Positions 10,561-50,700 of a DNA stretch of 64,000 nucleotides are shown in pieces; position 1 is the first letter of the stretch, and each line of letters starts with the position of its first letter. Where the stretch lies: contig NC_081370.1 in NCBI RefSeq assembly GCF_030684315.1, positions 23,318,267 to 23,382,266 on the forward strand. The letters are read 5' to 3'. The translations under genes were made by a program, and so were the position numbers. Source of the stretch: Stegostoma tigrinum (Eukaryota). The notes below the pieces were generated by a model. The model ran no database searches and was not told where the DNA came from. It was given only the letters and a program-made list of their open reading frames with translations.

Positions 10561-10590
10561 ACAGCAAAAACAATTTTATGCATGAATTTT

Positions 10591-12830
10591 GATCGGAGAT
10601 AATAGGAACTGCAGATGCTGAAGAATACAAGATAACAAAGTGTGGAGCTGGATGAACACAGCAGGCCAAGCAGCATCTTAGGAGCACAAAAGCTGACGTT
10701 TTTGGCCTCGACCCTTCTTCAGAAAAGGGGGATGGGGAGAGGGTTCTGAAATAAATAGGGAGAGAAGGCGAGGCGGACTGAAGATGGATACAGGACAAGA
10801 TAGGTGGAGAGGAGAGTATAGGTGGGGAGGTAGGGAGGGGATAGATCAGTCCAGGGAGGACGGACAGGTCAAGAGGGCGGGATGAGGTTAGTAGGTAGGA
10901 AATTGAGGTGGGAGGAGGGGATAGGTGAGAGGAAGAACAGGTTAGGGAGGCGGAGATGAGCTGGGCTGGTTTTGGGATGCAGTAGGGATGAGGGGAGATT
11001 TTGAAGCTTGTGAAAGCCACATTGATATCATCGGGCTGCAGGGTTCCCAAGTGGAATACGAGTTTCCGTTCCGCAACCTTCCGGTGGCATCATTATGGCA
11101 CTGCAGGAGGCCCAGGACGGACATGTCGTCTAAGGAATGGGAAGGGGTGTTAAAATGGTTCGCGACTGGGAGGTGCAGTTGTTTATTGTGAACTGAGAGT
11201 AGGCATTCTGCAAAGTGGTCCCCAAGCCTCCGCTTGGTTTCCCCAATGTGGAGGAAGCCACAACAGGTACAGCGGATGCAGTATACCACATTGGCAGATG
11301 TACAGGTGAACATCTGTTTGATGTGAGGGGGCAAGTGTAGCACTTCCTGCGGTTGCACGGGGAAGTGCCAGGTGTGGTGGGGTTGGAGGGGAGTGTGGAG
11401 CTGACAAGGGAGTCCCGGAGAGAGTGGTCTCACCGGAAGGCAGACAGGGGTGGGGATGGGAAAATGTCTTTGGTGGTGGGGTCAGATTGTAGATGACGGA
11501 AGTGTCGGAGAAGGGTCCCACCCACCTTCCTGCAGACCAATGTCCATTTCAAGCCCACCAACTCCCACAGCTACCTAGAATACACCTCCTCCCACACACC
11601 CTCCTGCAAAAAGTCCGTCCCCCATTCCCAATTCCTTCACCTCCGCCACATCTGCTCCCAGGATGAGGCATTCTACTCCCGTACATCCCGGATGTCCTCG
11701 TTCTTCAAGGACCGCAACTCCCCCCCCCCCCCCCCCCCCCCCTCCCACCCCGGCAGTGGTCGAGAACACCCCCAACCGTGTCTCCCGCATTTCCCACAAC
11801 TCATCCCTCACACACCGTCCCCCGCAATATCCGCCAAAAGAGAATCCCCCTCGTCCTCACATACCACCCCACCAACCTCCGGATTCAACACATCATCCTC
11901 TAACACTTCCGCTGTCAACATTCCGACCCACCACCAAAGATATTTTTCCATCCCCACCCTTGTCTGCCTTCTGGAGAGACCACTCTCTCCGGGAGTTGCT
12001 TGTCCGCTCCACTCTCCCCTCCAACCCCACCACACCCGGCACTTTCCCCTGCAACCGCAGGAAGTGCTACACTTGCCCCCACACCACCTCCCTCACCCCC
12101 ATCCCAGGCCCCAAGATGACTTTCCACATCAAACAGATGTTCACCTGCACATCTGCCAATGTGGCATACTGCATCCGCTGTACCCGTTGTGGCTTCCTCT
12201 ACATTGGGAAAACTAAGCGGAGGCTTGGGGACCGCTTTGCAGAACACCTCCGCTCGGTTCGCAATAAACAACTGCACCTCCCAGTCGCAAACCATTTTAA
12301 CACCCCCTCCTATTCCTTAGACGACATGCCCATCCTGGGCCTCCTGCAGTGCCATAATGATGCTGCTTGAAGGTTACAGGAACAGCAACTCATATTCCAC
12401 TTGGGAACCCTGCATCCCAATGATATCAATGTGGCTTTCACAAGCTTCAAAATCTCCCCTCCCCCCCCACTGCATCCCAAAACCAGCCCAGCTCGTCCCC
12501 ACCTCCCTAACCTGTTCTTCCTCTCACCTATCCCCTCCTCCCACCTCAGCCGCACCTCCATTTCCTGCCTACTGAGCTCATCCCACCCCCTTGAACTGTC
12601 CGTCCTCCCCGGACTGACCTACCCCTCCCCACCTCCCCACCTATACACTCCCCTCCACCTATCTTGTCCTGTATCCATCTTCAGTCCACCTCCCCCTCTC
12701 TCCCTATTTATTTCAGAACCCTCTACCCATCCCCCTCTCTGATGAAGGGTCAAGGCCCATTCCATCAGCTTTTGTGCTCCTGAGATGCTGCTTGGCCTGC
12801 TGTGTTCATCCAGTTCCACACTTTGTTATA
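10591..12830. mobile_element. Penelope-like retroelement, inverted two-arm insertion (P1)
   Basis: Minus arm about 10591-11512 and plus arm about 11535-12830. GIY-YIG motif VAYCIRCTRCGFLYIGKTKRRLGDRFAEH (ORF 11663-12370). TSD TTAT(G/A)CATGAATTTT at 10576-10590 and 12826-12840. Confidence 0.92.
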
Positions 12831-14198
12831 CATGAATTTTATTTGACTGCAAGTATTTTGGATGTCTGGTGATGTTTCTGCATATCTTTTCTCTTTACAC
12901 ATGGTTACGTAAAAATGCAAGCACCAACATCAAGGGTAACCTGTAGAAAATCTTATTTACTTTTCAAAAATGAAATATTATTCACACTGTTATAATCAAA
13001 TGAAAATCTTTTTGTTTAACAAAGAAATCATAAGTTTTTCTCTTCCTGTTTCTGTGACTTCTGTGTAGTGATGCCACTGTGGCTTCAGCAAAGCTAAAGA
13101 TGGGTTGCAGTTTTCTTTGCTTTGGAACCTATGAGGGCCCTGCCAAATATAGCCTGTTTGCAGTTGTGAATCACTGGAGTGGGAAGCAACCTGTCAGTGT
13201 CTGATTGAGAGGAAGTTAGAGGTGTGGAGGAAGGGGAACAAGCAATGAGCAGTGGGCGTACTGTAAGATGAATTCCCACTTCCAGCAGCCTGTTCTCCAA
13301 CCTCCCTCTTGTAGTACACCTGCAATTTCTCTGCAAACAGGAAGCTTGAACACTTCGCTGCATGTCAGTGAGTCATTGAGTACCCATGGTAAATCCTTCC
13401 TCTATCTAGTGTAAGGAGGCAGGCAGTGGATTGGTATCAGCTGACATGTACCGTCTGCAAGTGATGCTCTATCTAGATGGTGCTAATACCTGAGAAATAA
13501 TGGTACTTTCACTTGGTTTCAGTCTCATATCAAGGATGTGCATAGCTTCAGGAAATTCTGACAGAGCCACTGATGTTTTTAGCTGCTAAGCCATATCTTT
13601 TCTGCTTGATTGATATTCCCTTAAGCTCAGCATCTGGGTCCATCTGAGCAATGCTTGGAGGGACGGTCCCCTTCAAAATGGACCCTCCACTATTGTTCAT
13701 GTCCAACTGCTCCAACTCAAATGTGAAGTATGCCTTTCTATGTGATAATTGCTCACCCTTTCCTAGATCTCCTGAGCAGCTGAAAGTTTTGAGATATCAA
13801 AGACATGAGTTAGCGCTGACATTGAGAGGGCTCACAAATTCAATTTAGTGCAGACCATAACAGCTCACTTATAAGGGATATGTATTCTACATGATTGATA
13901 GTTAAGTTCGAAATGTCACCAGGTCTCTGGACCATTGCTAACTCTCCATTGCCACTACTCAGTAATTGGGCCACCTGACAGATCTCGGTTATTGTTAGAG
14001 CAGCAATATGTGCTAGTCTGCCCTGATTCTCTGAAATTCCCTTGGAGTTTTGGGATTTTTTTTCAGTAATGATAAAAGAGTTATGAGTTTGAGAACCTTG
14101 TGACGATACTAGGGTTTTACGAGGTGTAATCTGTCTTCTTTTTATGAAGAGAGATTGAGACAGAGGCGCTGAGTGTTGAGCTCAAAGCCAATAAGGTA

Positions 14199-17726: not shown

Positions 17727-17955
17727 GAGATAACAAAGTGTAGAGCTAGATGAACATGCCAGGCCAAGCAGCATCAGAGGAGCAGGAAGGCTGATGTTTT
17801 GGGCCTAGACCCTTCTTCAGGAAATATTTTCTGAAGAAGGGTTGAGGCCCAAAACGTCACCCTTCCTGCTCCTCGGATGCTGCTTGGCCTGCTGTGTTCA
17901 TCCAGCTCTACACCTTGTTATCTCAGATTCTGCAGCATTTGCAGTTCCTACTGTC
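17727..17955. mobile_element. Miniature palindromic PLE-terminus element (M2), inserted in a CR1
   Basis: Inverted arms about an apex at 17825/17826 (ttcttcaggaaat|attttctgaagaa), tail on the right. Only AAGTT (17722-17726, 17956-17960) as a possible TSD. Confidence 0.85.
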
Positions 17956-17982
17956 AAGTTCCAAAATTCCAGAACAATCCTA

Positions 17983-19322: not shown

Positions 19323-20733
19323 TATATCCTGGCAGATTGGAAGGTGCCAAATATACCATGTCATTTAAAACAAAAGGAGGGACCAATAATTACAAACCAG
19401 TTCATCTAATATCAATAGTAAGTAAAATCCTTGTCTATTAAAAAGAGTACAATGACAAGGCATTTACAAAATACCAAAGACTACCGTAGGTTTATACCAT
19501 CTTTGTAGGTTTACTGTTCTGTAGATTTTTTCCTGTACCTTTTATAAAAATGCTGAAGTGATGGAGAAAAAATAATATACGTATAAAATAATTATAAATT
19601 TTCTTTATTTTTCCTCATGGCTAATAAACAGTGACTGTTACTAATTTCTTACATGGGTATTCACAAAGACTGGTCCAGTCCTCAAATTACCTTTATATGG
19701 GTACACCTTCTAACAGGTGTCAGTGGAGAGTACACATGAACAGGGAGTTTAGCTATTTTGTTTTTCTTCACCCAAGAATAATGAGGCCAGCTATTACCTG
19801 TAAGGTTTTTAACAACTTTTTTCATTCAAATTAGGTTACATTTACAATAAACAGATTAATTATATCTATTGTCTAACAGATTCAATATAAGCCAGATGAT
19901 CTTGACTTTAAGTCCAAATGGTCTTCATGTTGGACACATGGGAAGTTTTATTAATTATAAAATAGTAATGAAGACACAGTAAACTGTTATTTTCCCTACA
20001 AGGAGTTATTGTCACTTAAAATCTATTGTATTACATTAGCACTATTTATGAACTTGCTCATCTATTATTTAACCAATTCATTTGCAATTAAAGCCTAAAG
20101 CTAGGTCTGAAATGATGCATGCCACTTCTGAAAGATGTGAGAAAGATCCTGTAGATGTATGGAAAATTTCCATTAATAAGGAATAAGTATTCCAATTCAT
20201 TTCTCTGAGCATATTAACTTAAGCTTATCTAAATATCACTGATGATACTCTTAAGACAGAAAGGAGTCATCTATGATGTTAACTTCTGGATGACCAACTG
20301 TTGAACAGTGCTGATTGACTGCCCACTCCAGCACTGTAGGAATCAGAGCCATTTTGATACCCAAGGCTTGTTTAAGTTGAACTAATGTGTTGTTCATTCC
20401 AAATCACTATCAGTGCCCTAATTAACATGGTTCAGTGTGGTGCCCTGAGGCTGAAGGCTATCTAGCCACCATCAACCTAAATTTTAGGTGAACTCATACT
20501 TGTCAAGGAGGGAAATCTTAAATTGACAGTCATCTAGATGAGTTTTGTGAAGGAGCATTCCTCCTCCTGAACCCAAAGAATTAATGTGTAAATTGCCCTT
20601 CTGGGGTCACCTTGTCAGTTTCCCCAGCAAAATTGGTTACAGAGTCTGATCACAGCTGGTCTGAAATGGTAATTGCCAATACATGTGCTATAGCTCCCCC
20701 TTTATAATGAAAAGGCAACTACTGTCTAAAATA

Positions 20734-23121
20734 ATACAATGTGAGGCTGGATGAACACAGCAGGCCAAGCAGCATCTCAGGAGCACAAAAGCTGACGTTT
20801 CAGGCCTAGACCCTTAAGCAGAGAGGGGGATGGGGAGAGGGAACTGGAATAAATAGGGAGAGAGGGGGAGGCGGACCGAAGATGGAGAGTAAAGAAGATA
20901 GGTGGAGAGAGTATAGGTGGGGAGGTAGGGAGGGGATAGGTCAGTCCAGGGAAGACTGACAGGTCAAGGAGGTGGGATGAGGTTAGTAGGTAGATGGGGG
21001 TGCGGCTTGGGGTGGGAGGAAGGGATGGGTGAGAGGAAGAACCGGTTAGGGAGGCAGAGACAGGTTGGACTGGTTTTGGGATGCAGTGGGTGGGGGGGAA
21101 GAGCTGGGCTGGTTGTGTGGTGCAGTGGGGGGAGGGGACGAACTGGGCTGGTTTAGGGATGCAGTAGGGGAAGGGGAGATTTTGAAACTGGTGAAGTCCA
21201 CATTGATACCATTAGGCTGCAGGGTTCCCAGGCGGAATATGAGTTGCTGTTCCTGCAACCTTCGGGTGGCATCACTGTGGCAGTGCAGGAGGCCCATGAT
21301 GGACATGTCATCTAAAGAATGGGAGGGGGAGTGGAAATGGTTTGCGACTGGGAGCTGCAGTTGTTTGTTGCGAACTGAGCGGAGGTGTTCTGCAAAGCGG
21401 TCTCCAAGCCTCCGCTTGGTTTCCCCAATGTAGAGGAAGCCACACCGGGTACAGTGGATGCAGTATACCACATTGGCAGATGTGCAGGTGAACCTCTGCT
21501 TAATGTGGAATGTCATCTTGGGGCCTGGGTAGGGGTGAGGGAGGAGGTGTGGGGGCAAGTGTAGCATTTCCTGCGGTTGCAGGGGAAGGTGCCGGGTATG
21601 GTGGGGTTGGAGGGCAGTGTGGAGCGAACAAGGGAGTCACGGAGAGAGTGGTCTCTCTGGAAAGCAGACAGAGGTGGGGATGGAAAAATGTCTTGGGTGG
21701 TGGGGTTGGATTGTAAATGGCGGAATTGTTTGAGGATGATGCGTTGTATCCGGAGGTTGGTAGGGTGGTGTGTGAGAACGAGGGGGATCCTCTTTGGGCA
21801 GTTGTGGCGGGGGCGGGGTGTGAGGGATGTGTTGCGGGAAATACGGGAGACGCGGTCAAGGGCGTTCGCGATCACTGTGGGGGGAAAATTGCGGTCCTTG
21901 AAGAACTTGGACATCTGGGATGTGCGGGAGTGGAATGCCTCATCCTGGGAGCAGATGCGGCGGAGGCGGAGGAATTGGGAATAGGGGATGGAATTTTTTC
22001 AGGAGGGTGGGTGGGAGGAGGTGTATTCTAGGTAGCTGTGGGAGTCGGTGGGCTTGAAATGGACATCAGTTACAAGCTGGTTGCCTGAGATGGAGACTGA
22101 GAGGTCCAGGAAGGTGAGGGATGTGCTGGAGATGGCCCAGGTGAACTGAAGGTTGGGGTGGAAGGTGTTGGTGAAGTGGATGAACTGTTCGAGCTCCTCT
22201 GGGGAGCAAGAGGCGGCGCCGATACAGTAATCAATGTACCGGAGGAAGAGGTGGGGTTTGGGGCCTGTGTAGGTGTGGAAGAGGAACTGTTCCACGTAAC
22301 CTACAAAGAGGCAGGCATAGCTGGGGCCCATGCGGGTGCACTGCATCCACTGTACTCGGTGTGGCTACCTCTATGTTGGGGAAACCAAGCGGAGGCTTGG
22401 AGACCGCTTTGCAGAACACCTCCGCTCAGTTCGCAACAAGCAACTGCACCTCCCAGTCGCAAACCATTTCCACTCCCCCTCCCATTCTTTAGATGACATG
22501 TCCATCATGGGCCTCCTGCAGTGCCACAATGATGCCACCCGAAGGTTGCAGGAACAGCAACTCATATTCCGCCTGGGAACCCTGCAGCCTAATGGTATCA
22601 ATGTGGACTTCACCAGTTTCAAAATCTCCCCTTCCCCAACTGCATTACTAAACCAGCCCAGTTCGTCCCCTCCCCCCACTGCACCACACAACCAGCCCAG
22701 CTCTTCCCCCCCCCCCCCCCCACCCACTGCATCCCAAAACCAGTCCAACCTGTCTCTGCCTCCCTAACCGGTTCTTCCTCTCACCCATCCCTTCCTCCCA
22801 CCCCAAGCCGCACCCCCATCTACCTACTAACCTCATCCCACCTCCTTGACCTGTCAGTCTTCCCTGGACTGACCTATCCCCTCCCTACCTCCCCACCTAT
22901 ACGCTCTCCACCTATCTTCTTTACTCTCCATCTTCAGTCCACCTCCCCCTCTCTCCCTATTTATTCCTGTTCCCTCTCCCCATCCCCCTCTCTGCTTAAG
23001 GGTCTAGGCCCAAACGTCAGCTTTTGTGCTCCTGAGATGCTGCTTGGCCTGCTGTGTTCATCCAGCCTCACATTTTATTACCTCGGAATTCTCCAGCATC
23101 TGCAGTTCCCATTATCTCTGA
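20734..23121. mobile_element. Penelope-like retroelement, inverted two-arm insertion (P2)
   Basis: Minus arm to 22339 carries RT motifs (MGPSYACLFV, LRYID) and GIY-YIG. Plus arm from 22340 carries GIY-YIG plus 3' end. Perfect TSD TACTGTCTAAAATA at 20720-20733 and 23122-23135. Confidence 0.95.
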
Positions 23122-23844
23122 TACTGTCTAAAATAGATGGGCACTACAGCCAGTCTTCAGCAGATCCCTGTTAAATCGGCCTGACATGTTAAATCTACTG
23201 TCCTATTGACACCGATGTTGCTAACTTAAAATCTTCACCACAATCTCAATAAAGTGGAGTAAGAACAGCAGAAATAAGGGCAATCTTCATTAAACAATTT
23301 ATCACAATTTGTCATTAGTTGAGAGAAACATTACAAATTAACATGCATTCCACTGGATAGACTGGGATAGAGAACTACTTAGAGGTCACAAGAGAAAATA
23401 AGTGAAAATGAAGCATGTAAAAGGATTAGTTTGAGGTGAAACGTCAATATCTCCTGTTCAGTTTCCCTTTTAAGCAAAATATTTTAGCAGCCGTCACTAA
23501 CTCTTTACAGCCAAAGCTAACATTTGAATACTGTAGCCTAATGGAAGAAAGAGCTTCAAGCATTATTGGTCATGATTAAGAAAAGGCATGTGGCTATATT
23601 ATCAATTCTACTGCCCCCTCCTGTTTCCAGTTCCTTGTTCATCTCTTAGTTGCAGATGTTACTGCTGTGAACTTCAGTATATTAGCACCCAATAGTTTCA
23701 GCATTATGAATGACTTCCGAAATGGCATCCATAGTGCACAGGTGAAATTGAGGTCACACTGCCATTTTGAAGCCTTTGTCCTCTGTTTTGAACATACATA
23801 TTTGAAGGGAGTTATCAACCACAGCAAAATTACTTGCTGCTTGA

Positions 23845-24545
23845 TTTTCATTAACTCTTATTCAGATTGAAACTGTGTTGGCTTGTTTGGTGTCTTCCAA
23901 AATTGTTTAAACTTGAGTACTATAGGATGAGGCTTCAAAAAGTGGGCAGTTGGGATCCCAAAGCGATGTCATGAGCTCAAATTTGTGTTGCCAGATCTGA
24001 AGAAACAATGTGGTAGAATTTTGGCAGAGTTATAAACAGTTGTGCCTCCCTCACTAATAGCCCAACTGCTCTCAAAGTTCGAACTGAACCATCATCACTG
24101 AAATAACTGTACAGAGGCCAATATTGCATCACCAAATCACTGTTTATTGACACATGGAGTGCCCTTGACAGTGATCCAGCTCCCTCAGAGCCAGCTCTCA
24201 GACTCTCCTATTCCTATCTGTCAGCCACCAGTCCCTGATTCGACCAGATTAACAGCCCCAATCCGGGAATTTGTATTATATGAGGTCCAACTGGCTGACC
24301 TCGTTACAATCACAATAATCACAATTATCATTTCTAAATAAGGTCACAGTGGGAGCATGGTGTGACAAGTGCTGACCCCTATTGTTGTCTCAGAGTTGGT
24401 GCTGCAAGTTTCAGCTCAAGAGCCTACTTTGGGATCCCAGTCCCCCATTTTGTGAAGTTTTGTCCTATTGTTTTCAAGTTTAAACAATTTTAGACAACAC
24501 CAAACACGTCAACACTGTTCCAATCTGAGTAAGACTAAATGGAAA
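23845..24545. repeat. Old foldback/MITE-like inverted repeat (arms about 185 bp) interrupted by the solo LTR
   Basis: For example aaaattgtttaaacttga vs tcaagtttaaacaatttt, and tgggatcccaaag vs ctttgggatccca. Confidence 0.7.
24099..24317 (-). mobile_element. Solo LTR, same family as 52625-52855
   Basis: Reverse complement aligns by eye to 52625-52855 along its length. Candidate 5-bp TSD ATCAC at 24094-24098 and 24318-24322. Confidence 0.75.
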
Positions 24546-25030
24546 GATAGTCTACCTGCTCCTAGTCACGGGTACAATTGTAGTCATTCACCATGGACTG
24601 TAGAGTAATAGAAAGTATGAACAGAGGTGACAAAAATAGTAAAGCTGTAAGAAGAGGCAGAGATTCAGGGAAGGGAGAAGACCTCTCAGCAAGAAGCCAG
24701 GACAACTCAGACTTATTTAAACAGCAATTATTGTTCAATAAATAACAGTCAGACGGCATTACTACACTATAGATGACCTAAATGAAATTTGCTAACTGCT
24801 GTCGGCACAACTTCAACCTCAAAGTAGGGTGAGCACGGAATTGGCAACAGTTATGAAAGTGATTATGTGTATCAACATTTATGCACCTTTCTTTTTCCAA
24901 GCTTGCTTGCTAAAGATATTTAAGTCAAGTCAGCAGAATGCTTCACAAGGATTGCAGACTCCCCATGGTGCTTTTGAATCTGCACAGGTTGTTTTGTGCA
25001 TGTAGCATGACAACTCTAAGATGCACCATG

Positions 25031-27427
25031 ATAACAAAGTGTGGAGCTGGATGAACACAGCAGGCCCAGCAGCATCTCAGGAGCACAAAAGCTGATGTTT
25101 CGGGCCTGGACCCTTCATCAGAGACAGGGATGGGGAGAGGGTTCTGGAATAAATAGGGAGAGGGGGGGAGGTGGACCGAAGATGGAGAGAAAAGAAGATA
25201 GGTAGAGAGGAGAGTATAGGTGGGGAGATAGGGAGGGAATAGATCAGTCCTAGGGACAGGTCAAGGAGGGGGGATGAGGTTAGTAGGTAGGAAATGGAGG
25301 TGCGGCTTGAGGTGGGAGGAAGGGATGGGTGAGAGGAAGAACAGGTCAGGGAGGCAGAGACCGGCTGGGCTGGTTTTGGGTTGCAGTGGGGGGAGGGGAC
25401 GAACTGGGCTGGTTTTGGGATGCAGTGCGGGAAGGGGAGATTTTGAAGCTGGTGAAGTCCACATTGATACCATTGGGCTGCAGGGTTCCCAAGCGGAATA
25501 TGAGTTGCTGTACCTGCAACCTTCGGGTGGCATCATTGTGGCACTGCAGGAGGCCCATCTTGAACATGTCGTCTGAAGAATGGGAGGGGGTGTTAAAATG
25601 GCTCGCGACTGGGAGGTGCAGTTGTTTATTGTGAACCGAGCGGACGTGTTCTGCAAAGCGGTCCCCAAGCCTCCACTTGGTTTCCCCAATGTAGAGGAAG
25701 CCACCCCGGGTACAATGGATACAGTATACCACGTTGGCAGATGTGCAGGTGAACCTCTGCTTAATATGGAAAGTCATCTTGGGGCCTGGGATAGGGGTGA
25801 GGGAGGAGGTGTGGGGGCAAGTGTCGCATTTCCTGCGGTTGCAGGGGAAGGTGCCAGGTGTGGTGGGGTTGGAGGGCAGTGTGGAGCGAACAAGGGAGTC
25901 ACGGAGAGAGTAGTCTCTCTGGAAGGCAGACAAGGGTGGGGATGGAAAAATGTCTTGGGTGGTGGGGTTGGATTGTAGATGGCGGAAGTGGTCGGAGGAG
26001 GGTGGGTGGGAGGAGGTGTATTGTATCCGGAGGTTGATCGGGTGGTGTGTGAGAACGAGGTGGATCTTCTTTGGGTGGTTGTGGCGGGGGCGGGGTGTGA
26101 GGGATGTGTTGTGGGAAATGCGGGAGACGCGGTCAATGGCGTTCTCGTCCACCATGGGGGGAAAGTTGCAGTCCTTGAAGAACTTGGACATCTGGGATGT
26201 GCAGGAGTGGAATGCCTCATCCTGGGAGCAGATGCGGCAGAGGCGGAGGAATTGGGAATAGGGGATGGAATTTTTGCAGGAGGGTGGGTGGGAGGAGGTG
26301 TATTCTAGGTAGCTGTGGGAGTCGGTGGGCTTGAAATGGACATCAGTTACTAGCTGGTTGCCTGAGATGGAGACTGAGAGGTCCAGGAAGGTGAGGGATG
26401 TGCTGGAGATGGCCCAGGTGAACTTGAGGTTGGGGTGGAAGGTGTTGGTGAAGTGGATGAACTGTTCGAGTTCCTCTGGGGAGCAAGGGGCGGCGCCAAT
26501 ACAGTCATCAATGTAACAGAGGAAGAGGTGGGGTTTGGGGGCCTGTGTAGGTGCGGAAGAGGGACTGTTCCACGTAACCTACAAAGAGGCAGGCATAGCT
26601 GGGGCCCATGCGGGTGCCCATGGCCACCCCCTTGTTCTGTAGGAAGTGGGAGAAATCGAAAGAGAAGTTGTTGAGAGTGAGGACGAGTTCAGTTAGGCGG
26701 ATGAGGGTGTCGGTGGAGGGGGACTGGTCGGGCCTGCGGGACAGGAAGAAGCGGAGGGCCTTGCAGAACACCTCCGCTCGGTTCGCAATAAACAACTGCA
26801 CCTCCCAGTTGCAAACCATTTTAACTCCCCCTCCCATTCTTCAGACGACATGTCCATCATGGGCCTCCTGCAGTGCCACAAGGATGCCACCCGAGGGTTG
26901 CAGGAACAGCAACTTATATTCCGCTTGGGAACCCTGCAGCCCAGTGGTATCAATGTGGACTTCACCAGCTTCAAAATCTCCCCTTCCCGCACCGCATTCC
27001 AAAACCAGCCCAGTTCGTCCCCTCCCCCCTCTGCACCCCAAAACCAGCCCAGCCTGTCTCTGCCTCCCTAACCTGTTCTTCCTCTCACCCATGCCTTCCT
27101 CCCACTTCAAGCCACACCTCCATTTCCTACCTACTAACCTCATCCCACCTCCTTGACCTGTCCGTCTTCCCTGGACTGACCTATCCCCTCCCTACTTCCC
27201 CACCTATACTCTCCTCTCCACCTATCTTCTTTTCTCTCCATCTTCAGTCCACCTCCCCCCCTCTCCCTATTTATTCCAGAACCCTCTCCCCATCCCTGTC
27301 TCTGATGAAGGGTCTAGGCCCGAAACATCAGCTTTTGTGCTCCTGAGATGCTGCTTGGCCTGCTGTGTTCATCCAGCTCCACACTTTGTTATCTTGGATT
27401 CTCCAGCATCTGCAGTTCCCATTATCG
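25031..27427. mobile_element. Penelope-like retroelement, inverted two-arm insertion (P3)
   Basis: Minus arm to about 26762 (LTLNNFSF..GVAMGTRMGPSYACLFV RT motif, GIY-YIG). Plus arm from about 26761. Perfect TSD AAGATGCACCATG at 25018-25030 and 27428-27440. Confidence 0.95.
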
Positions 27428-27569
27428 AAGATGCACCATGCCTGGTGAGACCATCCACAATAAACATACACTCAGCTGTGGTAAGCAGGATCCTATTACC
27501 CATTTACCAACAATCCCACATCTTATCTCCCCTCTGTTACTGATCATCACAGCATTCACATGGAAACAT

Positions 27570-29117: not shown

Positions 29118-29720
29118 TTTTACACTAAGAATTCAACTGTGTAGTCCCATCAGCCTTCTTCTATCAAAGTCTCTTCTGAGTCCTATGCAGCATAACTGGA
29201 GTGACTACATCCTCCAGTGGCAGGCTGACATTTGTTATCTTTATTGCCTCTCCAGGTTGCAGGCACCTTGATCTGTGTCTCACACCACATGCTGATCCTT
29301 CCTCTAAACAATTGTCCTAAAAATGTATAATGTTTGTCTGTAAGCTTTGGCTGCAAGATTGAGAGTGAGATAACATACTCCTTTACTCATGTCTTTCTGC
29401 TGTTGGCCAGCTTTTGCTCTTCCACCACTCCCTGACCAGTTTGAATTCTTGTTTTCCTGGTCTATGCCATATATCCACTTCAGATCACATTGTTGTTGAT
29501 TCTTAACTGCCCTCTGTAATTGTCTGACAAGCTACTCAGTTCAAAATCAATAGGAATGGGTAACAAATCCTGGCCTCGCTACCAATGCCCAAATCCAAAG
29601 GAAAATTTTAAAAACCGAAATCCCTTACCTGTGGTCATGTTATGAGGGAAGGGTAAGGTTTCAGATAGCCTCTCTGCCGTTGGGGCAATTGAGACCAAAA
29701 AGTGAACAATTAACTGCTAC

Positions 29721-31409
29721 TTAGAGATAGCAAGAACTACAGATGCTGGAGTCAGAGACAACACAGTGTGGAGCTGAGGCCAGGCAGCATCAGAGGAGCA
29801 GGAAAGTTGATGTTTCAGGTCAGGACCCTTGTTCGGAAATGGGGAACAGGAAGGGAGCTGGGAAATAAATAGGGAGCAGGGATGAGGCTGGGACAGCTAA
29901 GTGGGATGGTGATAGGTGAGTGCAGGTAGGGAGTAGTGGGAATTGATCAGTGAAGCAGGAGGAGCGGACAGATGGGAGAGAAGGTGTACAGATCGTGTCA
30001 GGTTGTGTCAGGTCAAGGAGGCGGAGATGAGAGGGAGGGTTGGACATGGGATGAGGCTAGTGGTAGGGAGATTTTAGAACTGGTGAATTCAATGTTTAGG
30101 CCATCAGGCTGTGGCCTCCTGAAGCAGAATATGAGGTGTTGCTCTGTCAGTTTGCGGGCGGTGTCGTTGTAACACTGAAGGAGGCCCAGGACAGACATGT
30201 CACCCAGCGAGTGGGAGTGGGAAGGGGATTTAAAATGGTTCTCGACCAGAAGATGTTGTCGTTTGTCGTGTGCAGAGCGCAGATGCTCTACAAAACGGCC
30301 TCTGAGTCTCCACTTGGTCTCACTGATGTAGAGGATGCAGTACACCAAGCTGATGAATGTACAGGTGACCCCATGTCTGATATGTAAGGTCTGCTTTGGG
30401 CTTTGAATGGAGGTGAGAGGGGTGGTGTCGGGGCAGGTGTAGCACTTCCTGCGGTTGCAGAGAAAAATGCTGAGGGTATAGTGAGGCTAGTGGAGAGTGA
30501 GCAGTCCCTATGAAAGGCACATAGGGGTGGGGAGGGAAATATATCTTTGGTTGTGGGTCAGATTGCAGGTGGTGGAGAATGATACATTGGATGCAGAGGT
30601 TGGTGGGGTATATGTGAGGACAAGGGGGGTTCTGTCTTTATTTTTGTTTGGGGAAGGGGTTTGAGGGCAAAAGTGTAGGAAATGCAAGGGAAATGAAAAT
30701 CCTCTCATCCATCCTCCTGCAATAATGTGATCCCCTATTCTCAATTCCTCCACTTCCAACACATCTCCTTCCAATATGGAAGGTTCCACTCCTGGACATC
30801 CCAGATGTCCTCCCGCTTCAAGGACCGCAACGTCCGCTCTCTGGTGATCAAAAAAGCCCTCAATTGTATCTCTTGCATTTCCTGCCCTTCTGCCCTCAGA
30901 TCCCTCACCCCAACAAATTAAAGACAGAATCCCTCTTGCCTCACGTATCACACCACCAACCTCTGCATCCAGCACAGCTTTCTCCACCATCCTGGGCCGC
31001 CTCCAATGTCACAATGTCACCACCCGCAAACTGAAGGAGCCATCTTGGTAGCCTACAGCCCGAGGGCCTAAACATGGAATTCACCAGTTTTAAAATCTCC
31101 TCACCCCCGGCCTCATCCCATGTCTAACTCTCCCTCTCATCCCCGCCTGCTTGACCTGACACAACCTGTCCATCTTCTCTCCCACCTATCTGCTCTTCCT
31201 GCCTCACTGACCAATCCCCACCACAGCCTACCTGCACTCACCTATCACCATCCCACTGACCTTCGCCAGCCCCACCCCTCTTCTCTATTTATTTCAGAAC
31301 TCCCTTCGCCGACCCTATTTTTGAAGAAAGGTCCCAACCTGGAACGTTAACTTTCCTGCTGCCCTGATGCTGCCTGGCCTGCTGTGTTCCTCCCAGCTCC
31401 ACACAATGT
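29721..31409. mobile_element. Older Penelope-like element, inverted two-arm insertion (P4)
   Basis: Degenerate GIY-YIG (ORF 30013-30348 -) and IPYSQF..RFKDR (ORF 30727-30921 +). Junction near 30690. TSD AATTAACTGCTAC at 29708-29720 and 31410-31422. Confidence 0.85.
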
Positions 31410-31844: not shown

Positions 31845-31978
31845 NNNNNNNNNNNNNNNNNNNNNNNNNNNNNNNNNNNNNNNNNNNNNNNNNNNNNNNN
31901 NNNNNNNNNNNNNNNNNNNNNNNNNNNNNNNNNNNNNNNNNNNNNNNNNNNNNNNNNNNNNNNNNNNNNNNNNNNNNN
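31845..31978. other. Assembly gap (134 N)
   Basis: Run of n characters. Confidence 1.
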
Positions 31979-32589: not shown

Positions 32590-32807
32590 AATAAAATGTG
32601 AGGCTGGATGAACACAGCAGGCCAAGCAGCATCTCAGGAGCACAAAAGCTGACGTTTCGGGCCTAGACCCTTTATCAGAGCTCTGATGAAGGGTCTAGGC
32701 CCGAAACGTCAGCTTTTGTGCTCCTGAGATGCTGCTTGGCCTGCTGTGTTCATCCAGCCTCACATTTTATTATCTTGGAATCTCCAGCATCTGCAGTTCC
32801 CATTATC
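32590..32807. mobile_element. Miniature palindromic PLE-terminus element (M3)
   Basis: 92-bp arms 32589-32680 and 32681-32772, no spacer, one mismatch seen; 35-nt tail. Perfect TSD TTTAAAAGTGAAGTT at 32575-32589 and 32808-32822. Confidence 0.93.
32677..32716 (+). ncRNA. Minimal type I hammerhead ribozyme motif (PLE-associated)
   Basis: AGAGCT-CTGATGA-A-GGG(tctagg)CCC-GAAAC-GTC-AGCTTT: conserved core, 3-bp stem II, palindromic ACGT in place of stem III, predicted cleavage after 32710. Activity untested. Confidence 0.7.
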
Positions 32808-33242: not shown

Positions 33243-33467
33243 GTAAGTATACATACCTCTCATAATAGACTTTTTAGGGTGTGACCATTAAGTGATCCAG
33301 TACCATTTTTTAAAAGGAAGACCAAAATAGAACTAATTTTAATCGACCTCAGGCAAAACAATCACTATTTACATCCTCCAGAGAAACCTCTAATTACCCA
33401 CATTGTCCACGGATATAGTTGATTTTACACCATTGATATCCTATTGACCATCACATCTTAGAATTAT

Positions 33468-33789
33468 AGAATCCCTGCAGTGTGGAAGCAGGCCATTCAG
33501 TCCACACCAACTCACCGAAGAGCAGCCCACCCCACTACCCTAGCCGGTAACTCTGCATTTCTCATGGCTAATCCACGTAACCTGCACATCCCTTGACACT
33601 GTGAGCAATTTATCAAGGCCAATCCACTTAACCTGCACATCTTTGGACTGTGGGAAGAAACCTGACATCCAGAGAAAACCCATGCAGACATGGGGAGAAT
33701 GTCTCTGTAGTTTGCACAGTCTCCCAAGGGTGGAATTGAATGTGGGTCCCTGGTGCTGTGAGGTAGCAGTGCTAACCACTGTGCAGCCC
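33468..33789 (-). mobile_element. tRNA-derived V-SINE (HE1-like)
   Basis: Reverse complement of the same family as 3583-3890. Confidence 0.85.
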
Positions 33790-37938: not shown

Positions 37939-40132
37939 GTAGGTCAAAATTTACAGCTAAGCATTGGTTAATTTCCATCTGCATGCAGTATTATGTGAAT
38001 TACCATTCAGATATCTATATGCATCTTTTAAATCTTTTCTCTCTTTTCAATGTTACTGATCTTCAAATGAAAAGATTTTTTTCAAGGGCTGTACCTATAT
38101 CTTCTAGTATAGGAAGCCAGTGAAAAGTGTCCGACATCCTGGATAGGAGAGAGATTTGGAGAATAGGGACCATAGTGGGCAACGCATTGTATTTGTCACT
38201 TAGTTGCTCTCTAAAGTGGCGAAGCAGTGATTCCAAATGAAGATGGCTCAACCATTTTAGGACTACCAGAATGGGTAATAAATAGTGTTCTTGACTTTGA
38301 TACTCGTATCTCACAGGTGAAGAAGTACTTCCTAAAAATCTGTAAACCTCAAATGAACATCAATGACTGATCCCATTGTGTGGATAGGTATTGCAAGCAA
38401 ATCATAAACACTACGAGTAAACAAATGAACACATTCCAAGAATTGAGCTTTATATTGTGGATAATTTCAAAGCTTGAAGCTAAATTAGCAATGAAAATTT
38501 GCACATCTGTCACCTTGGCTTCACAAATCATGAGGGTTTTGACAGAGATTGTTGAACATCATTATTATTTGAGTGCAAATCTGCTGTTGCTCAAACAAAT
38601 GTGGGGAGGTGCAGCAGAGGACTGAGAGGAAGGCTTTAGTGGCTTCTTAATCAACAGAGGATGACATTGCTGTCGACACCTATGACATCCACTACAGATA
38701 TTAGAAGATTGTTATCATTAAAGTCAGAAAGATTTAAATGCTTGTTTATAGTGTATTGACGATAATTGACTTTGAAAAAAGTGAGGCATCGATGAAGTAA
38801 AGTAATTAATTTGTTTGCAGTAAGTCTGATGTTTGGCATCATTTGTTCTTAGAAAGGTGCGCATGTTATGTTTTCCATGTCACTGATGTTACTGCTAACC
38901 TAACATTAACTGGCAAATGTTGCTGCTTTCAACTGTGGAACTGAAAAATCGCATGTACTATTCTATCAGTGCTGGAGTAATGATCAGAAAAATTTGCTGC
39001 AATAGCATATACAATTTGAATGTTGCAAATACTACTGCATCCCAAAATGCCATGCACCAACACTCCAGATGTGGGCCTTACTGGATCCATTTCAAATAGA
39101 TCATGATTAACAGTTCCTGGAGTGCTGGAAATGTACAAGGTAGACAGATTGTGATTTCCATCATTACAATGTTGATTTGATTCTTGCAGTGCCATTTTTT
39201 TGCTGCGCCAATCAAACCAATGCCCTCATTTAATATTGCTCACCTAAAAGTGCATGTAGCAAAAGGAAAGACTGCACCAACACAATTTAAAGAGGTCATT
39301 AACCTCTCCCATGTTAGTCATTAATTTCTAATAGTTGTTGTTCTGTTTGTATTGTCATTTCAAATTAGTGATGTTAAAGGGAATGAGCTGACATGGTGAA
39401 GCCCTTGGTTCTGATTTCCCAGATTCTGCTTAAACCACTTGCTCTATCATGAGTTCTGTAACTTGTATCTATGAGAAGCAATATGCCCAGTGCCTCCATT
39501 TCACTAACAATCTTGCTGCCCATCTCCAGGCAAATCTGTAGCATCAAAGCAGGGCAAAGATGACACTGTCAATGGTAGTGAGGGTGATTACAGCCATGAA
39601 CTTCTTTATACTGTGCTTATTCTAAGCTACAGCAAGAGCCTTCTCCAATATTGTGCAATTCCCTGTTCACAGTTGTGTGAGATTGAAACTCTGGATGCAA
39701 AGGGAAAAATATTGCTGTTTTATTTTTCCAGAGAGCTAAACACAATATGCATGTGACTTTGCCAGGATGGTAGTCAGCCCTGTATTAGACCATAATGTCA
39801 TCAATCCGACTGAATCAACACTTTCATGGCCTAGATTGGGTGAGGATATGCAGCTGTGCAGTTGTCCTGCAGGAGCAGTGGATATATACCAGTGAGTGTG
39901 ATGCAGTATGCTTGCTGTGAATGGCATTCCTGAGGTAATTGAATGGTTGGCCACATGTGCAAGCTGTGTGTTGCAGGTGTGAGGCTTGCAGCAGCGCTAG
40001 GTTTGTGAAGTTGAGGTAAACGGTGAATGTGAAGAATGGTTTGGGATTTGTATCAATTGTTAGGAGCTAAGTGATGGAGGTGTGATGCATTGAATACTCT
40101 GTAAAGCTGCTGACACAGTTGGTAGAATATGA

Positions 40133-40296
40133 ACTGCAGATGCCATAAATCAGGAACAAAAACAAAGTTGCTGGAAAAGCTCAGCATGTCTGGCAGCATC
40201 TGTGAAGGAGAAGACAGAGTTAATATTTTGGGTCTGGTGACCCTTCCTGAAAGGGTCACCGGACCCGAAACGTTAACTCTGCTTGCTCCTTCACAG
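40133..40296. mobile_element. Miniature palindromic element of a second PLE-like lineage (M7)
   Basis: Inverted arms ...gagttaatattttgggtctggtgacccttcc/tgaaagggtcaccggacccgaaacgttaactc. Flanks cacagtt-ggtagaatatga and cacagttgtggtggaatatga form a degenerate TSD. Confidence 0.7.
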
Positions 40297-40408
40297 TTGT
40301 GGTGGAATATGATATTTGAAGATGCATTTGCCAGCCCCAACCACTTGCATGAGATCATTAACTTTCTTATGACACTTGCCCCAATCCTTAAGATATACCT
40401 GCTACTTG

Positions 40409-43958: not shown

Positions 43959-44188
43959 AGATAATGGGAACTGCAGATGCTGGAGAATCCAAGATAACGA
44001 AGTGAGGGGCTGGATGAACACAGCAGGCCAAGCAGCATCTTAGGAGCACAAAAGCTGACGTTTTGGGCCTAGACCCTTCATCAGAAAAGCTTTTCTGATG
44101 AAGGGTCTAGGCCCGAAACGTCAGCTTTTGTGCTCCTAAGATGCTACTTGGCCTGCTGCGTTCATCCAACCCCACACCACTTTGTTAT
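43959..44188. mobile_element. Miniature palindromic PLE-terminus element (M4)
   Basis: Apex 44089/44090 (catcagaaaag|cttttctgatg), tail on the left. Perfect TSD CATTAATTCAGCAG at 43945-43958 and 44189-44202. Confidence 0.93.
44095..44122 (+). ncRNA. Minimal hammerhead ribozyme core
   Basis: CTGATGAAGGGTCTAGGCCCGAAACGTC intact; weak stem I. Confidence 0.6.
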
Positions 44189-44735: not shown

Positions 44736-45061
44736 ATGCAGCACAGTGGCTCAGTGATTAGCACTGCTACCTCACAGCACTTGGGACCCGGGTTCGATTC
44801 TACTCTCAAGCGACTGCCTGTGTGGAGTTTTCACATTCTCCCGATGTCTGTGGGGGTTTCCTGTGGTTGCTCCAGTCTCCTGCCACAAAGCTGTACAGGT
44901 TAGGTGGATTGGCCTGCTAAATTGTCCCACAGTGTCTCAGGATGTGCAGGTTAGGTGGATTATCCATAACTTGGAGGGAATGGATCTGGATGGGATGCCC
45001 TTCAGCAGGTTGATGTAGCTCAATGGGATGAATAGCCTCTTTCCACACTGTAGGATTCTAT
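44736..45061 (+). mobile_element. tRNA-derived V-SINE (HE1-like)
   Basis: Same head, V domain and tail as 3583-3890. Confidence 0.85.
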
Positions 45062-46307
45062 GAGTGCATTTGGGTGATGTACCCACCATAGGTAAGTATC
45101 TGTGGAGTTAGTGACAAGCAGATATGAGGCTGACATCATTTATGGTTAGAGTTTTTTGATGGTATGCATGATTCCTGAAGGCTGGGGTATGTTTCTGAGT
45201 GAGTCAATGTGTAGTAAAGAGTATGAGACATTAATGTTGTGGATAGGGAATGCCATATGTACTCCCTGTCTTAGAGTTCTTCCGGTGCTGCTGTAAGACC
45301 CTTCAGTTCAGACTCCATGAGTTCAAATTGTTCACTGGCTGCTTCCATCCCTTCACTGGTGAATCTTCTTAAAGATCTCTCCCCACTACCCATAGCCTTT
45401 AATGCCTCCAGTGTAACATTGTGCAACTTTTAATCGTTCTGTGTGCCCTTGTGATCTATTTGTAGAATTTCCATTGTGGCAGTCTTATTCCCTATCACTT
45501 CTTCAAAAGGCCGTTGAACTTTAAGAACAAGCATGCTGCCTCTGCAACAAATTGTGTAGCGAGGTATGTGAGGAGCTCAACGTGGGTATACAGGTGAAAA
45601 GACCAATGTCGGAGGCACCAGACACTCATTCAGATGAGGTGTGCAGGTAAATTTGATGTCTTGCCCATTTCCATCAGAATATGTGTTTGCACACCACACT
45701 TTGCAGATCCCATGCCCAGAAATAAATTTCACACCCACTGAGATTGATTCTCTAACCCCCTTTCACAAATTGCATGGCTTCATGCCAAAGTGGAATTTGT
45801 TAAATGTGAACCATATTTACCAGAGTGGCACTGGAATTGCTAAAAACACATCCACCAATTGATGTGAAGTGATGTTGGGTTTTTTGATCACTTATAGTTT
45901 GTACATTTTTGTACAATTAATATGTAACATGGAAAATTAGTTGCAGCAGCACATATAAGTGGAAATCATAAAATATTTACTTAAATATAGTGATGACAGT
46001 TGAATCACCTGCATTCAATAATTAAATAGGTATATTGCTAAGAATGCCTGTGTTGTTCAAGAAATCTTAAATTAAAAACCAATTTATGACTACACAAATA
46101 TCTAATAAATGTAATTATTTATTGTTCTTCACACTGTGACTGTTGTTTTCAAATCTGTAATTAATCCAAATTTTTGGTCATTATTGCTTTCAAGGGAAAC
46201 CATAAAAGTCAAACTTTGTCATGCATCTGTTTAAATATATACTTTTCTAATCCACCCAGAGATAATTGTAACCATTAAATCTTTAAGAAAACCATCACAA
46301 TTCACAA

Positions 46308-47700
46308 CATAATAAAATGTGAGGCTGATGAACACAGCAGGCCCAGCAGCATCTCGGGAGCACAAAAGCTGACGTTTCGGGCCTAGACCCTTCATCAGAG
46401 AGTGGGATGGCGTGAGGGTTCTGGAATAAATAGGGAGAGAGGGGGAGGCGGACCGAAGATGGAGAGAAAAGAGGATAGGTGGAGAGGAGAGTATAGGTGG
46501 GGAGGTAGGGAGGGGATAGGTCAGTCCAGGGAAGACGGACAGGTCAAGGTGGTGGGATGAGGTTAGTAGGTAGGAGATGGAGGTGCGGCTTGGGATGGGT
46601 GAGAGGAAGAACAGGTTAGGGAGGCAGAGACAGGCTGGACTGGTTTTGGGATGCAGTGGGTGGAGGAGAAGAGCTGGGCTGGTTGTCATCTAAAGAATGG
46701 GAGGGGGAGTGGAGATGGTTCGCGACTGGGAGGTGCAGTTGTTTATTGCGAACTGAGTGGAGGTGTTCTGCAAAGCGGTCCCCAAGCCTCCGCTTGGTTG
46801 CCCCAATGTAGAGGAAGCCACACCAGGTACAATGGATACAGTATACCAGATTGGCAGATGTGCAGATGAACCTCTGCTTAATGTGGAAAGTCATCTTGGG
46901 GCCTGGGATAGGGGTGAGGGAGGAGGTGTGGGGGCACGTGTAGCATTTCCTGCGGTTGCAGGGGAAGGTGCCGGGTGTGGTGGGGTTGGAGGGCAGTGCG
47001 GAGCGAACAATGGAGTCACGGAGAGAGTGGTCTCTCCGGAAAGCAGACAAGGGTGGGGATGGAAAAATGTCTTGGGTGGTGGGGTTGGATTGTAGATGGC
47101 GGAAGTGTTGGAGTATGATGCGTTGTATCCGGAGGTTGGTGGGGTGGTGTGTGAGAATGAGGGGGATCCTCTTTGGGCGGTTGTGGCGGGAGCGGGGTGT
47201 TAGGGATGTGTTGCAGGAAATGCGGGAGACACGGTCAAGGGCGTTCTCGACCACTGTGGGGGGAAAATTGCGGTCCTTGAAGAACTTGGACATCTGGGAT
47301 GTGCGGGAGTGGAATGCCTCATCCTGGGAGCAGATGCGGTGGAGGAATTGGGAATAGGGAATGGAATTTTTGCAGGAGGGTGGGTGGGAGGAGGTGTATT
47401 CTAGGTAGCTGTGGGAGTTGGTGGGCTTGAAATGGACATCAGTTACAAGCTGGTTGCCTGAGATGGAGACTGAGAGGTCCAGGAAGGTGAGGGATGTGCT
47501 GGAGATGGCCGAGGTGAACTGAAGGTTGGATTGGAAGGTGTTGGTGAAGTGGATGAACTGTTCGAGCTCCTCTGGGGAGCAAGAGGCGGCGCCGATACAG
47601 TCATCAATGTAACGGAGGAAGAGGTGGGGTTTGGGGCCTGTGTTGTTGCGGAAGAGGGACTGTTCCACATAACCTACAAAGTGGCAGGCATAGCTGGGGC
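46308..47700 (-). mobile_element. Penelope-like retroelement, single 5'-truncated arm (P5)
   Basis: 369-aa ORF 46616-47725 with PSYAC, LRYIDDCIG, FLD, IPYSQF and LVYCIHC..FLYIG; internal deletion near 46684. Candidate TSD CAATTCACAA at 46298-46307 and 47708-47717. Confidence 0.92.
46371..46398 (-). ncRNA. Minimal hammerhead ribozyme core in the P5 3' terminus
   Basis: Reverse complement reads CTGATGAAGGGTCTAGGCCCGAAACGTC, downstream of and sense to the PLE ORF. Confidence 0.6.
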
Positions 47701-50700
47701 AATGATGCAATTCACAAGCCCTCAAGGTGGCAAGACCACTAATTCAGTTCTGCTGCTCAGAGGTTCTCAATAAAACCTGTAAAAATTAAGGTTGTAACTG
47801 TTTACAATATCCATACGGTGATGTACATGGATGATAGGAAATGGATTCCAAGATTTGTGGTTCATAACTCCACCTTCCGCAACACTTAACAGCTTAATGA
47901 GCCACCTTTGATAAAGCATTTTTTTTTATCTTGCCGGGTTGGTTACCTCGTAGAACTGTGTTGGTGTGATACATTCAGCTAAATCGTTTCATTCTGTTCC
48001 ACACTTTTTATGTTCAATAAGTTCACCAAATATTTTAACATTGGTTGCTTAATGTTGGGAAGTAACTGTCCTTCAAAGGAATAGACTGTTGTCATATCAG
48101 GTATGGGGGACTTTTCCCCCTATCACAAATTGTTAATTTTAAATCTGAGATTTTGTTTTGTTAATCAAAGGTGTTAAGGGCTATGAGCCAAAGGCAGATA
48201 TTTGGACTTAGAGGACAGATCAGCCATGATCTCATTGAATGGTGGAACAGCCTCAAGGGGCTGAATGGTCTACTCCTGTTTCTATGTTCCAAATACACCT
48301 TTGACTATTTCTCCCAACCCAAAATGGCATAGGAAAGTTGCATGTGGAGAACATTTAAGTACAATCTATGAATTAATATGCCTTAGCCAAGAACTCTCTA
48401 TTGCAAAATACTATTGTATTTGATTATATAATACTATCATAAATTTAATCTTGGGTAAACAACTAAAGAAATTGATATCTTTTGCATTACATGGGTCAAT
48501 AAATTGCTTCATTTGAGCTTTCCTAAAGCTATGGAATTTCAGAAACAAATACCATGTTTTTGGTGCATCAGTGGTAAGATTGACAGCTTCTGTGTTACCT
48601 TTCTCTGGCACTTTTATTTTAATATATCAATCAGAATTCTGAACAACTTTGGGGCATCTTCCTCAACATCTCCCTGCTTTTTCCAGTTACTTTATTTTTA
48701 TGAAGCATCAGCATCATTGAGTAAGTCATGGATTTCTTCCTTGTGTTGAATGATGTCTCCTAATACAAGTTGAGGGAATTTTGAGTGTCCTTAAAGTGAG
48801 AAATGAATGGTTCTTTTAGTTCTGCTGTTACAATTCCTGGCCTGGACTAATATCAACTCAGTCTACTGCTAGCAGAAAGAATTGTTGTTTCAAGAAACTC
48901 GATAATTTCCATTGGCGACCAGACTTTTCTCACAATGCCTTGGATTCTAATGAGCTTTTTTGCCTCCTTCTGTTATAAAATTCCTTCACCACCACCACCA
49001 TTCTTCATCCATTCTTTCCTTTCCTATCTTTTTTAAACAGCATTTACTCTGTAATTTTTAACACCCCCATTCTTGCTCTTCCGTGTCCTAGGTCTCTGTT
49101 ATCGTCACATCATCATATTTCCAGATGACAATCTGCACCCGTATTTCCCCCGTCTAATTTACTACATCCTGTGCATTCACAAACATACACAATAATCCTG
49201 ATTTTAAACTGAGTTCCTTTCTCCTCATTCCACCTTCACCTTTATATTTTCGATACTCATGTTATCAGTCTCTGCAAACATTTTGTGCATCCCTAGTTTC
49301 AGCTTTCGTAGTGCCACTCGATTCTTACACCCCTGCAGAATTAGTTTAAAGCCCTCCCAACAGTATTAGCAAAGGGCCCCACAAGGAACTCAGTACTAGC
49401 TCTGATCAAGTGGAACCCACCTGGCTTGTACAGATATTGTCTTCCCCAAAACCAGCCATGATGTCCCACAGTGACTGAGTTATGAAAACCACGATTCAAG
49501 TTTCTGCCACTGACAATAACTTGTGCAACATAGTTATTGAGGAAATCAGTAAGGACTATAATTTCCCAACTATTACAGGCCAATATTTCATTTGACTGAG
49601 CTGCACTGCCATGACAGAAAAGATCGCTGTAGCAGAGTAGTAGAATTCATGCCCAGGTCCTGAACCCAGTGCTCATCCACTTCCAAATGCATTTCTTTTC
49701 CTCTCTCCCTTTCTTTTACTTTTGCTATTTTTTTCATTTTTGTTCTTTTTTTCCCCCTTTATTGGTGGGAGTGTTTCCTTCAGCAGTAGGAGCCATCCTA
49801 TTCTCAGCGAGCCGGTGGCAGTGTGCCCAGCTTTGAATCTGAGCCCAGTTCAGGACTCAGCGACTTTAACAGCAGCTGCATCACTGAGATCAGCTCAGCA
49901 CGGACTCATGGCAGCGACAACATTGGTGGAGGCAAGATGGCACTGAACAATGGCGACATGGTTCTAGCAGCAATGGCTGGGCCCAGAGTCCTGACTGTGG
50001 AGGTGGTGATGTTCCAGCTGCAGTGGTGTGCAGGGACTGAGGGCAGCTGAGTATTCACAAACTGAGGCATGGACTTTGTGGCAGTGAGGACTCATGGTAG
50101 AGGTGGGGAGTGATCTGGACATTTCCCTTTCTCTTGGCAGGTTCTTTTTACTTATAAAGTCATAGTCATACAACCGTTCAACCAGTTCATGCTGAACATG
50201 ATCTCAAACTAAACCAGTCCCACCTGCCTCCTCCTGGCCCATACCCTCCAAATTTTTCGAATTCCTGAACTTACCATGTCCACCACTTCCTCAAGAATTT
50301 CAGTCCTCATATAGACTACTGTCTGGTTAAAAAAAACATTTGCCCATCATGTCTTTTTAAAAATCTTCTTTCACCTCAAAAATATGTAATTCTGTCTTGT
50401 ATACTAAGTTGGCACCAGAGAATAGTGAATTTGTATTCTTTTTCACTGTACTCCTGTATCTGTATACTGGAGAACATGTGACATAAGAATCTAAATTTAA
50501 ATCTAAATGTTATGAAATGACTTCCTTTATATTAACTTTGTCTTGGATTACCTGCATTACATTATTGTCTTGGCCCTGAATGTACCGTGCTCCTGATGTT
50601 TCTCATTTCCTTTGTCCTTCCAAACCCACGACTGTTTCCATCTATAAGCACAAAAGCAGCAAATACTTGGGAACACCACCACCTGCAAGTTCTTTGCCAA

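Follow-up and report, generated by a model that had tools for sequence, protein, structure and literature searches.

Insertions of endonuclease-positive (EN+) Penelope-like elements (PLEs) have already been described with one-sided tails, inverted 5' copies and palindromes at their junctions (PMC8557442, PMC3846280), and the origin of the inverted structures is called open in PMC8557442 and PMC11167929. The closest biochemical system is PAc, a Poseidon element of Anolis carolinensis (Frangieh 2024, PMC11167929), whose protein, for which a dimer is predicted, cuts and extends both DNA strands in vitro and initiates reverse transcription internally on the RNA, at two sites that bound the tail; in other PLEs this tail has been published as the start of the element body following the 5' pseudo-long terminal repeat (pLTR) (PMC11167929). 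In L1 twin or dual priming, for which a two-RNA version was proposed earlier, complementary DNA (cDNA) is primed from the two nicks made by a staggered cut, and inverted pieces are left within target-site duplications (TSDs) (Meyer 2010, PMC2837659). Here we analyze a window of 64,000 nucleotides (nt) of AT-rich animal DNA from Stegostoma tigrinum (contig NC_081370.1, positions 23,318,267 to 23,382,266), in which the 3' end of a single retroelement occurs in no fewer than 14 copies. Its long two-arm copies, P1-P4, are dead, 5'-truncated copies of a Neptune-type PLE; like PAc, the family has AT-rich targets and, at its pLTR, a putative hammerhead motif, and as in L1, its insertions look as though both staggered nicks had primed cDNA, with the inverted pieces inside TSDs.

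Tail pairing and the outer ends of two-arm insertions

P1 (10591-12829), P2 (20734-23121), P3 (25031-27427) and P4 (29721-31409) each consist of two arms joined head to head, with the element's 3' terminus at both outer ends and TSDs of 15, 14, 13 and 13 nt. One end terminates at ...TTGTTAT, the other continues into a tail of 41, 40, 35 and 37 nt, respectively, and poly(A) is absent from both; to this extent, what a sequence-only reading of the window had described was borne out. Together with five intact short copies (minis A, C, E, G and H), exactly one tail is found in nine of nine two-arm copies of the window. We extended the count to G001, a 12-Mb "bacterial" assembly rich in animal DNA (154 PLE protein matches), a sign of contamination that makes it useful as a test set; the G001 counts concern host DNA in that assembly. 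The Neptune family of G001, at approximately 48% protein identity to the window family, is alike in anatomy, has a tail of approximately 55 nt, and is represented by 51 matches to its 3' end, mapped in 35 loci. Of the 15 two-arm copies of this family that retain both 3' ends, 14 have one tail, as do all eight scorable two-arm copies from five other G001 families, giving 22/23 for G001 and 31/32 with the window included. Were the sites chosen independently, no more than half of the copies would be mixed pairs; the frequency seen suggests that a single cut engages both internal start sites, each overhang taking one of them. Two published descriptions of EN+ PLE insertions call the tail optional and do not count it against arm length (Craig 2021, PMC8557442; Arkhipova 2013, PMC3846280), unlike the tail on exactly one arm observed here. 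The one-sided tail itself is already published; its near-strict pairing is a modest refinement, which relates the pair of start sites known from the in vitro work to the two DNA strands of a single cut.

The view that the outer ends behave like primed starts is supported by their two fixed sites, TSDs of 11-17 nt, absence of poly(A) and excess microhomology. Microhomology was taken as the overlap between element and TSD and compared with the values for blunt joins at composition-matched flanking sites. In G001, it came to 40 nt over 22 junctions against a null of 16.9-19.0 (p<0.001), of which the 11 tailed junctions contribute 22 nt and the 11 tail-less ones 18 nt; over 16 window junctions it came to 17 nt (strict) or 21 nt (lenient) against 11.2 ± 3.7 (p = 0.085 and 0.011, respectively). 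These window values replace a scoring in which every arm served as its own reference (19 vs 11, p = 0.03). The TSDs are 70-75% AT. The excess is clear in G001 and borderline in the window; of the four overlaps of 1-4 nt quoted earlier for window junctions, two stem from short copies beyond P1-P5 (cagCAG/agataat at 43956 and tTAT/aacc at 54976, the latter falling beyond the range 10576..47717 to which they had been assigned). PAc was reported to start at sites non-homologous to the DNA it cuts (PMC11167929), whereas the genomic junctions here have a small microhomology excess.

We regard it as reasonably probable that the window copies are 5'-truncated Neptune-type insertions produced by two-ended target priming. 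Under this mechanism, the GIY-YIG nuclease would cut AT-rich DNA with a stagger of 11-17 nt, as judged from the TSDs, leaving two 3' overhangs; each would pair with the RNA over 0-7 nt and prime reverse transcription internally, just downstream of the hammerhead-bearing pLTR, one at an upstream site to give the tail-less arm and the other at a site 30-55 nt further downstream to give the tailed arm. Probably acting as an asymmetric dimer, the complex would take one site of each kind, a pairing that we infer from the counts above. The two cDNAs would then stop largely independently and presumably be joined head to head, and where both ran off the 5' end of an RNA begun at the pLTR promoter, a palindromic mini of 200-260 bp would result. 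Either arm, tailed or tail-less, could be the longer; that the length differences go both ways speaks for stops that are largely independent of each other. That both 3'-OH ends prime reverse transcription, as the sequence-only reading had proposed, is in keeping with the two fixed sites, the TSDs, the microhomology at both ends and the extension of both strands by PAc; its further proposal, that one end is primed at the RNA 3' end, fares poorly, as both PAc start sites are internal (PMC11167929) and poly(A) is absent. A bolder version, in which all two-arm PLE insertions would come from an asymmetric dimer obliged to use both internal sites of one RNA, with the reverse transcriptase (RT) at the upstream site leading and usually reaching further in this vertebrate Neptune family and with the abundant minis marking the transcription start to the single base, strikes us as doubtful.

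A number of observations weigh against two-ended priming in the form given here. For PAc, no difference in start site between the strands is reported in vitro, and one-of-each pairing is not demonstrated by those data (PMC11167929); moreover, those data come from a Poseidon element, whereas the window family is Neptune-type. Folding of the start sites of the window family gave no structure (z = 0.36), while folding of the G001 Neptune 3' end gave z = -2.2. One G001 copy, C15, is tail-less at both ends and is counted as the one exception (it also has duplicated flanks), C61b is a possible second such case, and ten G001 copies were unscorable. The window microhomology is by itself borderline, and end joining likewise leaves microhomology. 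The start within the minis is read from sequence rather than from transcripts, and the Poseidon-type mini C118 of G001 does not begin 30 nt past a TATA-like box. Finally, gene conversion or a single active master may explain the similarity between arms. In P1-P4, each arm is nearest to its own partner (non-CpG distances of 5.5, 1.9, 4.0 and 16%), a point in favour of the mechanism, and by eye the G001 arm pairs seem to have common subfamily haplotypes, but this similarity is compatible with one RNA, two RNAs of one master, or conversion, and so does not discriminate among them. P1 left (10591-10730) carries CTTTTCTGA and CCTAAG, as in mini H; P1 right (12735-12829), unlike it, carries CTCTCTGA and CCTGAG, and the arms of this copy are possibly derived from two templates of sister subfamilies.

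Arm length and competing explanations

The sequence-only reading had held that the tail is confined to the arm that reaches less far 5', and it had set equal frequency of the tail on long and short arms against that rule. With reach expressed as position on the P3 left arm (smaller values lie further 5'), the tail-less arm extends further in P1 (right 415 vs left 761), P2 (left 141 vs right 1033), P3 (left 1 vs right 1099) and P4 (right 462 vs left approximately 650-772), or four of four (one-sided p = 0.0625). In P4, the tailed arm is physically the longer (approximately 975 vs 713 nt), owing to an internal deletion in the right arm. The intact minis of the window, which stood outside that earlier count, have equal arms in four of five cases, and in Mini A the further-reaching arm is the tailed one. 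Two window copies with one broken arm (F and 40126-40291) were dropped.

Among G001 copies with a TSD and arms differing by >30 nt, the tail-less arm reaches further in five of nine (C728b, C110, C110b, C331 and C718) and the tailed arm in the other four (C642, C485, C461 and C648), so that long and short arms bear the tail about equally often. Two further copies, C645 and C472, conform to the rule but are without a visible TSD. For window and G001 combined, the rule is followed in 9 of 13 TSD-flanked unequal copies (p = 0.13), or in 11 of 15 with those two added. Later inversion between the arms is an unlikely rescue, because C461 and C648 are young (arm identities of 98.8% and 99.1%). Ten G001 copies were dropped because an arm lacked its 3' end (C475, C667, C555 and C569), because of a contig end (C268), or because tail or TSD was not identifiable (C238, C61b, C334b, C402 and C214). 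Other host-laden assemblies gave matches in 1 of 88 and 4 of 63 genomes, of which only G001 was usable, the family in G002 being one copy; in the viral_contigs set, a DNA pattern scan returned 0 matches and protein scans nothing, and in metagenome_contigs, a DNA pattern scan gave a single bacterial-looking match judged to be chance. A literature search whose coverage excluded several older PLE papers found no count of the tail against arm length. The long-arm rule, which if true would have ordered the two priming events, thus holds for P1-P4, failed an independent test, and is not general; the bias may be confined to the window's own family. Single arms likewise do not follow the pattern of P5, which is indeed single and tail-less: of 18 single G001 Neptune arms, 13 are tailed (three of them cut by a contig end), three are tail-less and two stop earlier, and the single window copy B is tailed.

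Were the two RTs to work on one RNA, the one starting at the tail end would have to displace the leading cDNA and would stall earlier, leaving a shorter tailed arm. The 9 of 13 TSD-flanked unequal copies, or 11 of 15 including the two without TSDs, run in this direction, and in C110 the tailed arm is just the final 30 nt of the tail. We nevertheless consider this explanation unlikely, given that four copies refute its strict form, which cannot yield their longer tailed arms and is rejected; the near-identity of the arms in C461 and C648 makes later arm flipping a weak rescue, and in near-equal minis the tailed arm is longer in four (A, C334, C283 and C617) and shorter in one (C9).

Slightly less probable still is the model of the sequence-only reading, a tandem RNA on which the long, tail-less arm would be primed at the 3' end and the short, tailed arm immediately beyond an upstream, 5'-truncated pLTR copy. 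Partial tandems are frequent in PLEs (PMC2377424), private variants are common to both arms, and all four long window copies and five of nine G001 copies conform, but the four G001 copies with a further-reaching tailed arm (C642, C485, C461 and C648), the existence of tailed arms >2.1 kb (C115 and C184), the equal arms of minis and the lack of poly(A) at either end do not, and in PAc an RNA that has a single pLTR-ORF (open reading frame) junction supports starts at both internal sites (PMC11167929).

We give equally little weight to single priming followed by fold-back or self-priming, with the second end fixed by nuclease resolution (PMC3846280, PMC8557442). The haplotypes common to both arms would suit it, as would the centres of the minis, which are perfect palindromes, some of them on the natural palindromes TCGA or TTCGAA. 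A copy-back arm, however, cannot carry a tail that is absent from the template arm, and 9 of 13 copies have the tail on their shorter arm, so that pure fold-back is rejected; in addition, long unique spacers occur in the unequal copies, and the arms of P2 are joined blunt. L1 twin priming as a class can be dismissed, since L1 has poly(A) and variable internal priming that yields non-overlapping pieces (PMC2837659), whereas here both arms hold the same 3' region, begun at two fixed sites 30-55 nt apart, without poly(A). The window insertions thus work like twin priming without being a case of it, and two-ended priming is plausible and largely anticipated.

Minis and a candidate transcription start

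The intact window minis span 200-230 bp. Mini A (4646..4844) has two arms, a left tail and a TSD of 13-15 nt, its right arm missing the hammerhead core; palindromic Minis C (17727..17955) and E (32590..32807) have right tails and TSDs of just 5 nt and of 15 nt, respectively; palindromic Mini H (43959..44188) has a left tail and a 14-nt TSD; and Mini G (54782..54973) has a palindromic centre, a left tail, a 15-nt TSD and a small left-arm deletion. Mini F (54019..54165), with a right tail and a broken left arm, was excluded from scoring. Arms of the window minis start 30-32 nt past a TATTTAT box, which is retained in all nine long arms, including those of the 30%-diverged P4 subfamily. By hand count, 12 of the 51 G001 matches start 29-32 nt past TATATAAA, and 24 of 51 start inside one 27-nt zone (the reference region for the TATA-like box and the mini starts is L004:1952-1984). 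Short copies in two unrelated animals may mark a candidate site of transcription initiation immediately ahead of the putative hammerhead, and we read the minis as probable run-off products at that start.

In sequencing run X1, 731 contigs have a loose end at the mini start (27301), and between 637 and 3026 have one at each of four tail-less positions (27391-27395); these contigs are too short to connect the tail with arm length, and their depth is no measure of copy number. Within 27391-27426, tail-to-tail joints of a tail-less with a tailed end occur in 61 and 79 contigs, and direct joints back to 27299-27302 are also found; the joints may come from minis arranged in tandem or from repeat insertion within a TSD. 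The start of the C383 arm of G001 (L065:2169-2292) coincides exactly with the cut predicted for the hammerhead, following GAAACGTC (reference position 2019, hand-counted), and the C227 arms (L064) start 4 nt downstream of that predicted cut. The one exact case, C383, is a hint that cleaved RNA may sometimes serve as template. Two G001 copies, C622 and C85 (L060 and L032), have identical flanking sequence and differing mini arrangements.

Family assignment and other features of the window

Consistent with an EN+ PLE, the window translations have an RT of the PLE type with a GIY-YIG nuclease C-terminal to it, and the copies have inverted or tandem pLTR structure, a one-sided tail of 30-40 nt and no poly(A). 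Fifty of 51 protein matches were at E<=6.5e-10, the majority annotated PF00078, with a top identity of 51%, to full-length relatives; a full-length copy is absent from the window, as it is for the Neptune family in G001. The GIY-YIG domain was matched in two of four window proteins at E values of 0.001-0.002, under the Pfam cut-off. The IDD residues are invariant, as are C305 and H343 of the nuclease's CCHH motif (CIRCTRC ... HFNTPSH). A CX2-5CXXC linker between RT and nuclease defines Neptune and Nematis (PMC8557442). The linker in the window translations, CNRRKCYTC (CX4CXXC), therefore places the family in one of these two and excludes Penelope and Poseidon; the initial label of Poseidon was dropped once the linker had been tested. 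Between the two, the family is probably Neptune, judging by its motifs.

The tail is not a chance sequence, since its 20-mer has nine window matches at <=3 mismatches compared to 0 in shuffled sequence. A minimal hammerhead core, CTGATGA..GAAAC, was identified by eye in the 3' region; an Rfam search returned no hammerhead match and only five weak miRNA-like hairpin matches. As in the minimal PLE hammerheads (Cervera and de la Pena 2014, PMC4209133), the putative window motif has the CUGANGA core, an extra base before stem II and a palindromic ACGU instead of helix III. Both P2 arms have CTGCTTA in place of the core CTGATGA (20820-20835 and 22990-23005).

The P1 left TSD (10576..10590, + strand) has its right copy at 12826-12840, with one mismatch and overlapping the element by TTAT. 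The left arm (10591..11509, - strand) comprises the thumb end, linker, GIY-YIG domain, 3' region and tail (10591-10631); at the head-to-head junction, by eye, approximately 26 nt of filler resembling nearby element sequence (11510..11535, +) separates it from the tail-less, further-reaching right arm (11536..12829, +). In P2, the TSD (20720..20733, +; right copy 23122-23135) encloses a tail-less left arm extending to the RT motif GTRMGPSYA (20734..22339, -), joined blunt to the tailed right arm (22340..23121, +). P3 (TSD 25018..25030, +; right copy 27428-27440) includes the longest copy, a tail-less left arm (25031..26757, -) with the C-terminal part of RT, the linker and GIY-YIG, in which a stretch coding for SSHPPS has a 30-nt duplicate at 25996-26025, probably a template slip; its tailed right arm (26758..27427, +) has the TATTTAT box at 27268-27274 and the hammerhead core from 27302. 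P4 (TSD 29708..29720, +; right copy 31410-31422) has a tailed left arm of an older subfamily (29721..30695, -) and a tail-less right arm (30696..31409, +) that starts further 5' and bears the internal deletion. P5 (46298..47717, -) is one arm (46309-47700) with a 10-nt TSD (46298-46307 and 47708-47717), and B (7990..8090, -) is an old arm without a clear TSD. A 14/16 match to the tail end at 46257-46272, 51 nt left of P5, is due to chance or is an old remnant, and is the only one of eight tail-end matches that is not a genuine tail.

Two further copies of the 3' region, which are older and more diverged, lie at 40126-40291 and 63566-63650. The palindrome at 51224-51450, with a hammerhead-like motif and a broken right arm, comes from a second PLE family, which we assume to be Poseidon-like. 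A SINE-like repeat is present in four copies (1772-2063, 3585-3890, 33459-33784 and 44738-45063), while 7370-7702 and 9637-9999 are presumably fragments of a CR1-like LINE and 51607-52576 presumably LTR-retrotransposon-like fragments. There is a gap of 134 N at 31845-31978, and a 140-nt inverted repeat lies within 23845-24545.

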